A program made the translations under genes and the position numbers. The notes beneath the pieces are model-generated. The model worked only from the letters and a program-made list of their open reading frames with translations. It was not told the DNA's origin and searched no databases. Below, piece by piece: positions 9,675 to 13,005 of a stretch of 64,000 bases of DNA (the first letter of the stretch is position 1; every line of letters starts with the position of its first letter). The stretch lies in NCBI RefSeq assembly GCF_003334815.1, contig NZ_QOWO01000020.1, one strand, 5' to 3'. The DNA is from Escherichia coli. Lineage in GTDB: Bacteria; Pseudomonadota; Gammaproteobacteria; Enterobacterales; Enterobacteriaceae.

Positions 9675-10958
9675 TTAGCCTTTAGCTGTTGCATTTTGTT
9701 TATGAAACAGTTCACGGAACACCGGATAAATATCATCCTGGTCGCGGATGTGCTGCATCGCAAAGTTGTCGAAAGTAGATTGCAGATGCTCATATTCTCG
9801 CCACAATGTCTGATGTGCACGACGGGTAATTTCGATATAGCTGTAATAACGAACAACAGGTAATAATTTTTTCGCCAGGATTTCATGGCAAAGCGGAGAG
9901 TCATCGGCCCAGTTATCGCCGTCCGATGCTTGTGCAGCGTAAATATTCCACTGTGCCGGGTTATAACGCTCTTTCACTACCTCATCCATCAGTTTCAGGG
10001 CGCTGGAAACAATGGTGCCGCCTGTTTCCTGCGAGTAGAAAAACTCATGTTCATCGACTTCTTTCGCCTGGGTATGATGGCGGATGTATACGACTTCCAC
10101 GTTCTTATACGTTCTGCTGAGGAACAGATACAGCAGAATATAAAAACGCTTAGCCATATCTTTAGTGGATTGATCCATTGAACCGGAAACGTCCATCAGG
10201 CAAAACATCACTGCCTGGCTGGAGGGATCGGGCCGCTTCTCGTAGTTCTTGTAACGTAAATCGAAGGTGTCAATAAAAGGGACGCGTTCAATTTTGGCAC
10301 GTAATTCTGCAATTTCTTTGCGCAGACGTTCCTCTTCCAGCAGTTGCGCAGGTTCACTGTTGCTGATGATGGCCAAATTCTCTTCCAGTGCATGAAGTTC
10401 CCGCCGCTTGCCTGCCGTCATGGCTGTGCGTCGCGCCAGTGAGTTCTGCAATGAACGCACAACGCTGATATTGGCCGGAACGCCGTTAGCGGTATAACCC
10501 GCCCGATGCGTTTTATATTCGGTCAGCTGGCGTTGTTGGTTTTGTTTCAGATTCGGTAAGGCCAAATCTTCAAAGAGCAGATCAAGATACTCATCTTTCG
10601 AAATCTGAAAGACAAATTCATCCTGACCTTCACCATCCTGGCTGGCCTGGCCCTGACCACTGCCGGAACCTCCGCCGCCACCCTGGGGACGTTCAATTCG
10701 GTCGTTCTGGACGAAATGGTCATTGCCCGGATGCACGCGGTGGCGCAGACCGCCACGCCCCTGATGAAACATCGGTTCGCTAATATCTTCCGTGGGAATG
10801 GATACGGATTCGCCGCTGTCGACGTCAGTCACCGAACGCTTATTAATGGCCTCGGAGATCGACTGTTTAATTTGCGCTTTATAACGGCGTAAAAAACGCT
10901 GGCGATTCACCATGCTTTTGTTTTTGCCGTTCAGACGCCGGTCAATAAACCAGGTCAT
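9675..10958 (-). CDS. yeaH: DUF444 (YeaH/YhbH family) protein
   Basis: ORF track 427 aa; immediately downstream of yeaG. Confidence 0.9.
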
Positions 10959-11070
10959 ATGCCCCCCGTACTACATTTGCCAACTGTATGCTACGCCTGT
11001 GTTGCCGCTTCTCAGGCCCACGGTTCGCTGTCGTTGTAGGCCCGGTAACATGTGTACCGGGCCAGGGTTG

Positions 11071-13005
11071 TTAAGACGATTTACGTACGCGCAAATACCA
11101 TTCGCACAGTAAACGCACCTGTTTACGGGTGTAGCCTTTTTCCATCATACGGTCGACAAAGTCGTCGTGTTTCTTCTGCTCGTCGGTTGACGTTTTGGCG
11201 TTAAACGAGATAACCGGCAACAGCTCCTCGGTATTGGAGAACATTTTCTTCTCGATGACCGTGCGCAGTTTTTCATAGCTGGTCCAGTTCGGATTGCGTC
11301 CGCTGTTATTCGCTCTGGCGCGCAGTACGAAGTTAACAATCTCGTTGCGGAAATCTTTTGGATTACTGATCCCCGCCGGTTTCTCGATTTTCTCCAGCTC
11401 GGCGTTAAGAGACTCGCGGTCAAACAGCTGCCCGGTATCCGGATCGCGATACTCCTGATCCTGAATCCAGAAATCCGCGTAGGTAACATAACGGTCGAAA
11501 ATGTTTTGCCCATATTCGGAATAGGATTCAAGGTAGGCCGTCTGGATCTCTTTGCCGATAAACTCGGCATATTTCGGGATCAGATAACCTTTCAGGAACT
11601 CCAGATAGCGTTCTGCCTGCTCTTGTGGGAACTGCTCGCGCTCAATCTGCTGTTCCAGGACGTAGAACAGATGGACCGGGTTTGCTGCCACTTCTACATG
11701 ATCGAAGTTGAACACGCGGGAGAGGATCTTAAACGCAAAACGCGTCGACAGACCGTTCATCCCTTCATCGACACCGGCGTAGTCACGATATTCCTGATAC
11801 GACTTGGCTTTGGGATCGGTGTCTTTCAGACTTTCGCCATCATAAACCCGCATCTTTGAATAAATGCTGGAGTTTTCTGGCTCTTTCAGGCGCGAAAGAA
11901 TGGAAAAACGTGACAGTGTTTCGAGCGTGCCAGGGGCGCATGGGGCGTGAGTCAATTCACTGTGATTAAGCAATTTCTCGTAGATTTTGATCTCTTCGGA
12001 AATGCGCAAGCAATACGGCACCTTCACGATGTAAACACGATCGAGGAAGGCTTCGTTGTTTTTGTTATTACGGAAAGTGACCCATTCGGACTCGTTCGAG
12101 TGTGCGAGAATAATCCCGTTGAACGGCAGGGCGGAGATACCTTCCGTCCCGTTGTAGTTACCTTCCTGAGTGGCGGTTAACAAGGGATGCAGCACTTTAA
12201 TCGGTGCTTTAAACATCTCAACGAATTCCATGATCCCCTGATTGGCGCGGCACAGCGCACCGGAATAGCCGTAGGCGTCCGGGTCATTCTGCGCGTAGTG
12301 TTCGAGTTTACGAATATCGACTTTCCCAACCAGCGCGGAGATGTCCTGGTTGTTCTCATCGCCGGGTTCCGTTTTGGCGATAGCAATTTGTTGCAGAATT
12401 GACGGCCAGACCTTCACTACCCGGAACTTAGTGATATCGCCACCAAATTCATGCAGGCGTTTTGCCGCCCACGGCGACATGATGGTGCCGAGATAACGGC
12501 GAGGAATGCCATACTCTTTTTCCAGAATCTGCGCATCTTCCTGCGGATTGAAAAGACAGAACGGATGATCGTTGACCGGGCTACGCTCACCGTTCGCGCT
12601 CAATACATAAATCGGTACGAGCTGCATTAATGATTTCAGTCGCTCAGCAAGCGATGATTTACCCCCACCCACAGGCCCCAGCAGATACAGGATTTGTTTC
12701 TTCTCTTCCAGCCCCTGAGCCGCGTGTTTCAGATAAGAGACAATCTGTTCAATCGCGTCTTCCATGCCGTAAAACTCTTCAAACGCCGGATAACGTGCAA
12801 TGACCCGGTTAGAAAAGAGTCGAGAAAGTCTGGGTTCCTGGGCTGTATCGACCATGACAGGCTCACCGATAGCCATCAATAGCCGCTCAGCCGCGTTGGC
12901 ATAAGCACTGCGATCTTGCCGACAAGTGGTAAGAAACTCCTGCAGTGTGAACTCTTCGTCCTTGGCAGCTTCATATCGCTGGCGATAGTGATCGAATATA
13001 TTCAT
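11071..13005 (-). CDS. yeaG: PrkA-family serine protein kinase YeaG
   Basis: ORF track 644 aa; Walker A-like LLGPVGGGKSS. Confidence 0.9.
   Translation of the reverse strand: MNIFDHYRQRYEAAKDEEFTLQEFLTTCRQDRSAYANAAERLLMAIGEPVMVDTAQEPRLSRLFSNRVIARYPAFEEFYGMEDAIEQIVSYLKHAAQGLEEKKQILYLLGPVGGGKSSLAERLKSLMQLVPIYVLSANGERSPVNDHPFCLFNPQEDAQILEKEYGIPRRYLGTIMSPWAAKRLHEFGGDITKFRVVKVWPSILQQIAIAKTEPGDENNQDISALVGKVDIRKLEHYAQNDPDAYGYSGALCRANQGIMEFVEMFKAPIKVLHPLLTATQEGNYNGTEGISALPFNGIILAHSNESEWVTFRNNKNNEAFLDRVYIVKVPYCLRISEEIKIYEKLLNHSELTHAPCAPGTLETLSRFSILSRLKEPENSSIYSKMRVYDGESLKDTDPKAKSYQEYRDYAGVDEGMNGLSTRFAFKILSRVFNFDHVEVAANPVHLFYVLEQQIEREQFPQEQAERYLEFLKGYLIPKYAEFIGKEIQTAYLESYSEYGQNIFDRYVTYADFWIQDQEYRDPDTGQLFDRESLNAELEKIEKPAGISNPKDFRNEIVNFVLRARANNSGRNPNWTSYEKLRTVIEKKMFSNTEELLPVISFNAKTSTDEQKKHDDFVDRMMEKGYTRKQVRLLCEWYLRVRKSS

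Follow-up and report, generated by a model that had tools for sequence, protein, structure and literature searches.

The window, a stretch of 64,000 nucleotides of Escherichia coli DNA, contains the yeaGH operon of E. coli K-12 (b1783/b1784), and our analysis suggests that the 'kinase' label suits YeaG less well than that of an ATP-driven motor with YeaH as its metal-dependent adaptor. This reading is offered as a lead and not as a new discovery, as the literature already covers both genes, the way they pair, how they are regulated and the phenotypes of their mutants. The best overall explanation, which we regard as somewhat probable, is an operon for an AAA+ motor and a von Willebrand factor A (vWA)/MIDAS adaptor that would act with YcgB to slow metabolism during starvation.

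Both open reading frames were found at the positions, on the strand and with the lengths given in the initial annotation, and the locus was laid out as follows.

11071..13005, minus strand: yeaG coding sequence, 644 aa, a PrkA-family AAA+ protein containing LLGPVGGGKSSLAERL (assigned from the open reading frame, Pfam, NCBIfam and the E. coli annotation)
9675..10958, minus strand: yeaH coding sequence, 427 aa, DUF444 (assigned from the open reading frame, Pfam and NCBIfam)
10959..11070, minus strand: yeaG-yeaH intercistronic spacer, 112 nt
13006..13440, no strand assigned: mipA-yeaG divergent regulatory spacer, 435 bp
13441..14187, plus strand: mipA open reading frame, 248 aa, divergent from yeaG

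A 4.2-kb stretch matched, at 100% identity, E. coli K-12 records that carry the annotations yeaG, yeaH, mipA and cdgI, and this identity, together with the Pfam and NCBIfam matches, bears out the gene names and the PrkA and DUF444 families that had been proposed. The upstream spacer measured exactly the 435 bp expected, and the gap between the two genes, previously given as 113 nt, was one nucleotide shorter. The same 4.2-kb stretch was present in 5,426/5,426 complete E. coli genomes with conserved flanks in every one; yeaG and yeaH belong to the core genome and do not lie in an island. Across the Gammaproteobacteria, YeaG identity was 77-99% in the sample of loci studied. A 75-aa open reading frame at 13002..13229 on the minus strand, overlapping the promoter and leader, was treated as spurious.

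[quoted passage not shown]

11866..12951, minus strand: AAA_PrkA domain, residues 19-380 (Pfam PF08298, E 2e-187, full model length)
12655..12678, minus strand: Walker A P-loop G110-P-V-G-G-G-K116-S117, fitting GxxxxGK[ST]
12037..12234, minus strand: putative Walker B (E263), sensor 1 (N304) and EAflDR arginine-finger motif (R323), residues 258-323
11098..11862, minus strand: PrkA C-terminal domain, residues 382-636 (PF06798, E 1.7e-70), predicted to be all-helical with no kinase fold
11728..11763, minus strand: invariant G415-x-x-G418-x-S420-x-R422 followed by K426, proposed as an AAA+ sensor-2-like element

Membership of the PrkA family was supported by PF08298, PF06798 and NCBIfam NF011999, the last at 1342 bits over a curated cut-off of 576. 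The Walker A motif had been correctly recognized from the start: G110, P111, G113, K116 and S117 were invariant in 42 YeaG homologues, those of Thermus phages included, and the published K116A variant does not complement, K116A and R232A both being inactive (PMC4664914). E263, H302, N304, D322 and R323 were likewise invariant among 42 homologues. The block of residues 258-323 aligned with residues 114-174 of RavA (DEIWKA...ASNE...EALYDR), and from this alignment we infer the roles of E263, N304 and R323 as Walker B, sensor 1 and arginine finger. YeaG, which has the Walker A motif and residues that align as Walker B acid, sensor 1 and arginine finger, is best read as a predicted AAA+ ATPase of the PrkA family.

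The YeaG profile also matched the AAA+ modules of RavA, Lon, FtsH, RuvB and ClpX among PDB sequences. Setting aside 9xip, a member of the same family, and a designed P-loop protein that matched at the Walker A loop only, the best match was RavA at E 3e-5. The RavA match spanned Walker B to the arginine finger (hhalign E 2.7e-4), with a probability of about 42% and only about 100 residues covered, and Pfam AAA_5 reached just i-E 4e-3. The core therefore appears to resemble MoxR ATPases, with a likeness that is weak and below family-level significance. A published AlphaFold 3 analysis assigned the PrkA of B. anthracis to clade III of the AAA+ proteins, apart from MoxR (PMC13001217).

The matches to Lon bear on the proposal that YeaG is a Lon-like ATP-dependent protease degrading starvation regulators or enzymes, with YeaH as its substrate adaptor. 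B. subtilis PrkA does degrade alpha-casein, an activity that depends on ATP and on Walker A (PMC9512850), and the Lon AAA+ modules are weakly similar to YeaG. However, the similarity to Lon among PDB sequences was restricted to residues 76-130 around Walker A, and the NCBIfam lon match scored 16 bits against a cut-off of 608, over residues 76-122 only. Neither Pfam nor NCBIfam returned any Lon protease-domain match, so that a C-terminal Ser-Lys domain was not found, and the model of the YeaG C-terminus likewise gave no protease match. The protease activity of B. anthracis PrkA was reported to be negligible, and that protein is said to have no active-site residues (PMC13001217). We consider a protease quite improbable.

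The biochemical activity of YeaG is contested between kinase, protease and neither. RefSeq and NCBIfam both label it a protein kinase, and E. coli YeaG was reported to autophosphorylate and to phosphorylate casein in vitro (Tagourti 2008, as cited in PMC9512850 and 10.1101/072470). Phos-tag gels indicated a phosphorylation of AceA by YeaG that occurred only with malate, and the phosphoproteome was altered in a yeaG deletion (PMC8055822), so that phosphoproteomics of a yeaG mutant is already published. The K426A allele, published as 'kinase-dead', does not complement (PMC4664914). These observations favor a true eukaryote-like Ser/Thr kinase, in which the C-terminal domain would phosphorylate enzymes such as AceA under regulation by the AAA+ module, with YeaH and YcgB as accessory signaling proteins. 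The literature on phosphotransfer is in conflict, positive for E. coli YeaG and negative for the two Bacillus proteins: B. subtilis PrkA binds ATP through Walker A only and is an ATPase and not a kinase (PMC9512850), and B. anthracis PrkA, which oligomerizes with ATP, has neither kinase nor meaningful protease activity (PMC13001217).

The computational results did not recover a kinase. Pkinase families gave no match at E<=10 for YeaG and none at E<=0.1 for any of the 42 homologues, and PDB kinases gave none at E<=1 with the full YeaG profile and none at E<=10 with the C-terminal profile. The isolated C-terminal domain was modelled from a shallow alignment of 24 sequences (pTM 0.58), and this model was all-helical, with no bilobal kinase fold having a beta-sheet N-lobe. 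The Foldseek matches of this model to nuclear receptors and similar proteins (E>=1) were discounted, and 9xip was absent from the list. The 'kinase' of the initial annotation is a historical family name, and a kinase fold was unsupported by every computational test run, and we consider a true kinase unlikely.

What the C-terminal domain does carry is a conserved motif, in which G415, G418, S420 and R422 were invariant and K426 nearly invariant among YeaG homologues. The G-x-S-x-R part reads GISPR in PDB 9xip and GLSPR or GISPR in the Thermus phage homologues, and the loop that contains the motif was poorly modelled (pLDDT <50). We infer that G415-R422 would form a sensor-2-like element and that K426 would belong to the lid close to sensor 2 instead of being a kinase lysine.

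The second protein of the operon matched Pfam DUF444 (PF04285) at E 4.8e-191 over positions 2-418 of 418 and NCBIfam NF003708 at 843 bits, with a cut-off of 466, placing it in the DUF444/YeaH-YhbH family by a full-length domain and an equivalog model. Its layout would comprise an N-terminal helical part, a flexible glycine-rich linker and a C-terminal vWA domain.

10641..10679, minus strand: glycine-rich disordered linker of YeaH, residues 94-106 (pLDDT <50), within a low-confidence region of about 60-110
9684..10253, minus strand: predicted vWA (von Willebrand factor A) domain of YeaH, residues ~236-425 (AF2 pLDDT 86.1, alternating strands and helices)
10179..10193, minus strand: MIDAS motif D256-V-S258-G-S260 (DxSxS), completed by T315 and D346

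Searches of YeaH against PDB sequences, by single sequence or by profile, returned no match; the vWA domain was seen by fold comparison only. With the vWA model, Foldseek returned 85 matches in the PDB at E<=0.001; of the 50 listed, nearly all were vWA/MIDAS domains, including those of NorD (9qhe_G) and the Rea1/MDN1 MIDAS. The MIDAS motif was defined as DxSxS...T...D (PMC9976466), and its residues D256, S258, S260, T315 and D346 were invariant in 119 YeaH homologues of 37-59% identity. YeaH also aligned to ViaA over the MIDAS region (hhalign E 2.8e-4), the motif standing opposite ViaA DTSGSM. As modelled, the C-terminal half of YeaH is a vWA fold with a complete MIDAS metal site. The initial annotation had missed DUF444 as a vWA/MIDAS protein.

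The conserved pairing of the two genes was borne out, as a yeaG homologue immediately preceded yeaH in the same orientation in 79/79 gammaproteobacterial loci with readable upstream DNA. In the window, the vWA/MIDAS gene yeaH follows yeaG in the same orientation after 112 nt, the arrangement of a MoxR/vWA gene pair. A SpoVR gene was found directly downstream of yeaH in 50 loci outside the Enterobacterales; in the Enterobacterales the SpoVR-like ycgB is unlinked from yeaGH. A CotH match in SpoVR (E 0.044) was taken as chance. Genetics had already connected YeaG and YeaH, since deletion of yeaH phenocopies deletion of yeaG (PMC4664914) and across six bacteria the mutants of yeaG, yeaH and ycgB show cofitness (10.1101/072470). 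The earlier remarks that the pair is tied to starvation and that its mechanism is poorly defined agree with the literature (PMC4664914, PMC10954441, 10.1101/072470).

The yeaG-yeaH-SpoVR trio was also present in a Ralstonia jumbo phage and in Thermus phages, the yeaG-yeaH pair in a phage genome of >630 kb, and metagenomic contigs kept the trio together beside DNA polymerase A and 5'-3' exonuclease genes. Such contexts would suit a function mainly in a nucleic-acid or phage-related process, such as takeover of host metabolism or defence, with the starvation phenotypes being secondary. However, PADLOC gave no significant match, its lone hit, IetA (E 0.0069), having no individually passing stretch; yeaGH is part of the E. 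coli core genome, with conserved flanks; and control by NtrC, sigma-54, sigma-S and SdsR suits starvation physiology. We regard a phage-related function as very improbable.

The expectation that the upstream spacer is a regulatory region was upheld by a sigma-54 element, an SdsR site, and the RpoS- and RpoN-dependent promoters and NtrC binding known from the literature. The regulatory features of the operon, from leader to terminator, are given below.

13109..13124, minus strand: sigma-54 -24/-12 element TGGCAT-N5-TTGCT (TGGCATGAGAGTTGCT), a single mismatch to TGGCAC-N5-TTGCW
13027..13036, minus strand: SdsR pairing site in the yeaG 5'UTR, -31..-22 (CCTGTGCTAA), position according to PMC10954441
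13015..13018, minus strand: yeaG Shine-Dalgarno AGGA, read from the sequence; GAAAGGACGG is kept in E. coli-like loci
11039..11063, minus strand: GC-rich stem-loop GGCCCGGTA-cacatgt-TACCGGGCC, directly after the yeaG stop codon and with no U tract
9642..9670, minus strand: intrinsic terminator of the yeaGH operon, an 11-bp stem followed by a T run, starting 5 nt past the yeaH stop codon

The sigma-54 element has the -24 GG and -12 GC elements at the right spacing and was kept in 18/25 enterobacterial-type upstream regions, the window counted in. Because it lies at -119 from the yeaG ATG, it gives a 5'UTR of about 93 nt, which agrees with the -93 construct in the published dissection of this leader (PMC10954441). 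The core of the SdsR site, CTGTGCTAA, was found again in most enterobacterial-type loci. Binding of NtrC and RNA polymerase as well as RpoS- and RpoN-dependent promoters were reported for the spacer (PMC4664914, PMC10954441), NtrC binding upstream of yeaG having been detected by ChIP (PMC4664914). Palindromes of the form TGCACC-N5-GGTGCA gave zero matches with <=4 mismatches in 12990..13460; therefore, the NtrC sites must be divergent. Patterns for IHF, CRP, Lrp and ArgR gave weak, uninformative matches only in the spacer, and a sigma-70 promoter scan returned 5 sites compared with a mean of 5.0 in shuffled sequence, which is no excess.

Transcription would start between mipA and yeaG at a sigma-54 promoter activated by NtrC, with a second start, taken from the literature, from a sigma-S promoter. 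The leader would bear the SdsR sRNA pairing site, and SdsR would lower translation in prolonged starvation. The best reading of yeaGH regulation, taken from these papers with the promoter element identified here, is one that is driven by NtrC/sigma-54 and sigma-S and repressed by SdsR. Folding of the whole 112-nt yeaG-yeaH spacer was not exceptional against shuffles (z -1.0), and we therefore claim a local hairpin and not a structured RNA element. A strong hairpin of differing sequence occurred near the spacer start in most of 32 other loci and was absent in L018, L022, L024 and L032. An Rfam search of 9400..13600 returned zero families. The terminator would close the operon.

In the motor and adaptor mechanism, a YeaG ring would hydrolyze ATP and YeaH, via its MIDAS-bound metal, would hold a client protein by an acidic patch. 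Acting jointly with the SpoVR-like YcgB, whose gene is unlinked, the pair would next remodel or inactivate this client, giving the 'metabolic brake' already described for cells starved of nitrogen or carbon. A bolder version, which we put forward tentatively and at somewhat less than even confidence, is that YeaG is no protein kinase at all and that YeaG, YeaH and YcgB form a distinct, very widespread AAA+/vWA-MIDAS remodelling machine like the MoxR-VWA pairs, in which K426A would disable the AAA+ lid beside the sensor-2 arginine R422 and which jumbo and Thermus phages would reuse.

The operon is among the most conserved and most strongly stress-induced ones without a settled mechanism, and depictions of it as a kinase pathway were still current in the field in July 2026. 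As a genome-scan result, yeaGH brings nothing new. If the motor and MIDAS-adaptor reading is true, clients gripped via an acidic patch should be sought and not phosphosites, with YeaG E263Q (a trap), R422 and K426 and YeaH D256 and S258 as mutational handles.

YeaG and YeaH would, by analogy, work like MoxR-type AAA+/vWA pairs, for which RavA-ViaA (E. coli), NorQ-NorD and CbbQ-CbbO were taken as analogues; the general MoxR/VWA mechanism is given by NorQD (PMC9976466). RavA is the ATPase with the best sequence similarity to the YeaG core outside the PrkA family, and its partner ViaA is, like YeaH, a vWA protein. In contrast to the MoxR ATPases, YeaG is twice their size, with about 145 residues from Walker A to Walker B and a helical C-terminal extension of about 260 residues, and SpoVR is a third conserved partner of YeaG-YeaH that has no counterpart in MoxR systems. 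The AAA+ proteases Lon and FtsH are weakly similar to YeaG around Walker A, whereas YeaG has no detectable protease domain.

A close parallel in gene content is the Bacillus PrkA-YhbH-SpoVR trio, which shares the Pfam families AAA_PrkA plus PrkA, DUF444 and SpoVR with E. coli; in most bacteria the gene trio is the same as that of Bacillus. The NCBIfam spore_yhbH model matches YeaH at E 1.5e-70, below its cut-off. The Bacillus trio shows sporulation-specific expression, whereas E. coli has a starvation quiescence phenotype and an unlinked third gene, ycgB, and the Bacillus proteins were described as ATPases with protease or no activity, rather than as kinases (PMC9512850, PMC13001217). A full-length YeaG homologue is represented by PDB 9xip/9xiq/9xir ('Serine protein kinase', 692 aa; profile E 2.8e-120, residues 18-638), for which a literature search found no describing paper. 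It shares the Walker A, Walker B and GxSPR motifs with YeaG, and its best phage relatives have only about 26-28% identity to YeaG. Compared with K-12 yeaGH itself, the locus has zero sequence difference, the same neighbors mipA and cdgI/yeaI, and the published mutant residues K116, R232 and K426 at identical positions. Compared with the published 'eukaryote-like kinase plus protein with no known similarity', only the reading of the YeaG C-terminal domain and of YeaH differs.

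The two reading frames in the initial annotation, a 644-aa PrkA-type protein and a 427-aa DUF444 protein on the same strand, were confirmed by position and by Pfam and NCBIfam:

11071..13005, minus strand: yeaG ORF, 644 aa, containing LLGPVGGGKSSLAERL
9675..10958, minus strand: yeaH ORF, 427 aa, from the ORF reading
13441..14187, plus strand: mipA ORF, divergent from yeaG

The surrounding 4.2-kb stretch matched E. coli K-12 and further strains at 100% nucleotide identity, with the annotations yeaG, yeaH, mipA and cdgI, and was found in 5,426/5,426 complete E. coli genomes. YeaG matched the Pfam families AAA_PrkA (residues 19-380, E 2e-187) and PrkA C-terminal domain (residues 382-636, E 1.7e-70), and YeaH matched DUF444 (E 4.8e-191), both proteins scoring far above the NCBIfam equivalog cut-offs. 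K116, R232 and K426, the residues altered in published mutants, occupied the same positions in the window's YeaG. The pair is a textbook-annotated, experimentally studied operon, correctly identified and already known. The 435-bp spacer to mipA also stood, with mipA starting at 13441, and the yeaG-yeaH gap was corrected from 113 to 112 nt (10959..11070).

Insertion sequences were present inside the matched stretch in several E. coli genome records (H1-H4 and H8), with IS1 in HB101, DLI.5a, BDSF8-3 and AST46 and ISEc40 in OZ489144. An additional "PrkA family serine protein kinase" annotation in HB101 and an additional "DUF444 family protein" annotation in OZ489144 suggest that yeaG and yeaH, respectively, are split there, so the operon would be dispensable in those backgrounds.

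The following elements were located around the two genes:

13109..13124, minus strand: sigma-54 type element TGGCAT-N5-TTGCT, 119 nt before the yeaG ATG
13027..13036: SdsR pairing site CCTGTGCTAA, positioned according to PMC10954441
11039..11063: GC-rich hairpin without a U tract, just past the yeaG stop
9642..9670: canonical terminator after yeaH, 11-bp stem and T run

NtrC and RNA polymerase binding, and RpoN- and RpoS-dependent promoters, have been reported at yeaG (PMC10954441, PMC4664914). The position of the -24/-12 element predicts a yeaG leader of about 93 nt, in agreement with the published -93..+63 5'UTR construct (PMC10954441). The sRNA SdsR is reported to repress yeaG translation by pairing at -31..-22 (PMC10954441, PMC4664914). 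Of 25 enterobacterial-type upstream regions, 18 had the -24/-12 element; elsewhere it was present in Thiocystis only. The CTGTGCTAA core of the SdsR site was seen again in most enterobacterial-type loci. A search of the yeaG upstream DNA for the NtrC consensus palindrome found none, so the reported NtrC binding must use divergent sites. A 75-aa ATG ORF (13002-13229, minus strand) that traverses the yeaG promoter as well as the leader, and shares 4 nt with the start of yeaG, is most likely spurious.

The intercistronic spacer was compared with its counterparts in L001-L033 (L numbers denote homologous loci from other genomes, phages and metagenomic contigs). A strong GC-rich hairpin lacking a U tract opened the spacer in most of the 32 other loci listed, with differing sequences; REP-like GCCGGATAA...CCGGC repeats also occurred in L004, L006, L008, L010 and L011, and the final ~27 nt 5' of yeaH (AGTTGGCAAATGCAGTACGGGGGGCAT) were common to most E. 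coli-like loci. Past the terminator, the next gene is cdgI/yeaI (8053-9528, minus strand), which lies in markedly AT-rich DNA (GC 0.31-0.37 versus about 0.50 in yeaGH); its 491-aa product is a membrane protein whose GGDEF site is degenerate (EGEVFG). Across the whole window Rfam gave only two matches, both the ES036 (CssrF) sRNA and far from yeaGH (56506-56548 and 63652-63694, minus strand; 55.5 and 42.9 bits against a gathering score of 37.6).

Among 1.84 billion cluster representatives searched, 3,388 were YeaH homologues at E<=0.001; 119 of these, 37-59% identical to YeaH, were aligned. D256, S258, S260, T315 and D346 were invariant and together make up a complete MIDAS motif, DxSxS-T-D (definition in PMC9976466). 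YeaH had no match when the PDB was searched by sequence. In the confident AlphaFold model (pLDDT 86.1, pTM 0.74), the N-terminal part is helical, and a disordered linker rich in glycine (residues 94-106, pLDDT < 50) and then two long helices lead to a C-terminal domain in which strands and helices alternate. Foldseek produced 85 PDB matches for it at E<=0.001; of the 50 listed, nearly all were vWA domains, including the anthrax-toxin receptor, complement factor B and C2, integrin I domains, the Rea1/MDN1 MIDAS domain and NorD of NorQD. Judged by these residues and its modelled fold, YeaH is a vWA/MIDAS protein. For the Rhizobium orthologue, one earlier paper had already pointed out a vWA domain (PMC3188799), and the E. 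coli literature still calls YeaH unlike any known protein (PMC4664914).

The conserved pairing proposed initially was seen in all 79 gammaproteobacterial loci whose upstream DNA was available: a yeaG homologue immediately preceded yeaH in each, 7-233 nt away in every locus except one. In 50 loci from outside Enterobacterales, the next gene after yeaH encoded SpoVR (PF04293, E 7.8e-182); E. coli and its close relatives had none there, in agreement with ycgB forming a separate operon (10.1101/072470). In six bacteria yeaG, yeaH and ycgB mutants cofit (10.1101/072470), and yeaH deletion phenocopies yeaG deletion (PMC4664914). YeaG was the more conserved partner (77-99% identity, versus 58-99% for YeaH, in the same loci). 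Between E. coli and Vibrio, Aeromonas, Shewanella, Pseudoalteromonas and Pseudomonas (L026-L079), YeaG was 77-87% identical and the adjacent YeaH 58-77%, always below YeaG; such conservation is unusually high for a protein of unsettled function.

Copies also occurred in phages. Jumbo Ralstonia phage RsoM2USA (L081, 4944-9760) carries the trio as PrkA of 647 aa, DUF444/vWA of 428 aa and SpoVR of 505 aa; Thermus phages MN1 (L085) and Lalka8 (L088) have the order vWA-SpoVR-PrkA, adjoined in Lalka8 by portal/terminase genes; Thermus phage TMA (L086) has SpoVR and PrkA two genes apart; and in an uncultured 642-kb phage (L087, 4001-7309) yeaG, 65% identical, precedes yeaH, 41% identical. Phage YeaH homologues kept DxSGS. 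Metagenomic contigs L082, L084 and L089, with distant DUF444 representatives within PrkA-DUF444-SpoVR trios whose neighbours are genes for DNA polymerase A, 5'-3' exonuclease, PD-(D/E)XK and ssDNA-binding proteins, look like phage genomes. The record of Enterobacter phage LAU1 (MN688132.1, 30.8 kb) opens with a full yeaG (1-1932) whose product shares 97.7% identity with E. coli YeaG; rather than a phage gene, this is probably an assembly artefact or host DNA from the edge of a prophage. A primarily phage-related role for the module is highly improbable.

Across 42 YeaG homologues, with identity down to 27%, the Walker A residues, E263, Q280/E281, H302/N304, D322/R323, R334, R372 and a C-terminal motif, G415-x-x-G418-x-S420-x-R422, were invariant, and K426 was nearly so. 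Against the PDB, the YeaG profile ranked the solved homologue 9xip ("Serine protein kinase") first (E 2.8e-120), then a designed P-loop protein (Walker A loop only) and then the MoxR ATPase RavA (E 3e-5), whose match spanned Walker B, sensor 1 and the EAxxDR block; Lon, FtsH, RuvB and ClpX matched around Walker A only. With hhalign, YeaG aligned to E. coli RavA at E 2.7e-4 (probability 42%) and YeaH to ViaA at E 2.8e-4 across the MIDAS. No PDB protein kinase was matched by the full YeaG profile at E<=1 or by the C-terminal profile at E<=10, and no Pkinase Pfam family was found in the 42 homologues. AlphaFold modelled residues 375-644 as entirely helical (12 helices without any sheet; pLDDT 78.6), and Foldseek had no match for this model at E<=0.001. 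YeaG is an AAA+ protein, with no sign of a kinase fold in these searches or in the C-terminal model. Its invariant GLSTR motif, which reads GISPR in 9xip and GLSPR/GISPR in Thermus phage homologues and lies in a poorly modelled loop, presumably resembles a MoxR-type sensor 2; if so, K426A, the published "kinase-dead" allele (PMC4664914), would disturb the lid of the ATPase instead of the active site of a kinase.

Published accounts of YeaG/PrkA activity conflict. That YeaG is a protein kinase draws on autophosphorylation and casein phosphorylation of the E. coli protein, as cited in later papers (PMC9512850, 10.1101/072470), and on AceA phosphorylation, reported only with malate (PMC8055822); a July 2026 preprint still depicts a kinase pathway. 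B. subtilis PrkA bound ATP only via Walker A, was not a kinase and degraded casein (PMC9512850), and B. anthracis PrkA had neither kinase nor appreciable protease activity and formed ATP-dependent oligomers (PMC13001217). We regard a kinase as unlikely and a protease as more doubtful still. The "kinase" label is probably wrong, and a testable argument against it is the useful residue of this analysis.

The best-supported picture, which we favour with modest confidence, is that YeaG would act as an AAA+ motor and YeaH as its vWA/MIDAS adaptor, in the manner of RavA-ViaA and NorQ-NorD. The motor model fits both the obligate yeaG-yeaH pairing and the layout of YeaH, in which a disordered linker lies between the N-terminal domain and the vWA domain. 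In MoxR/vWA systems, a hexameric ring is bound by a single vWA protein, which takes hold of an acidic patch of the client through its MIDAS site (PMC9976466). This is a likeness and not membership: YeaG is much larger than the MoxR ATPases and weakly similar in sequence, and MoxR systems have no counterpart of the third partner, SpoVR.
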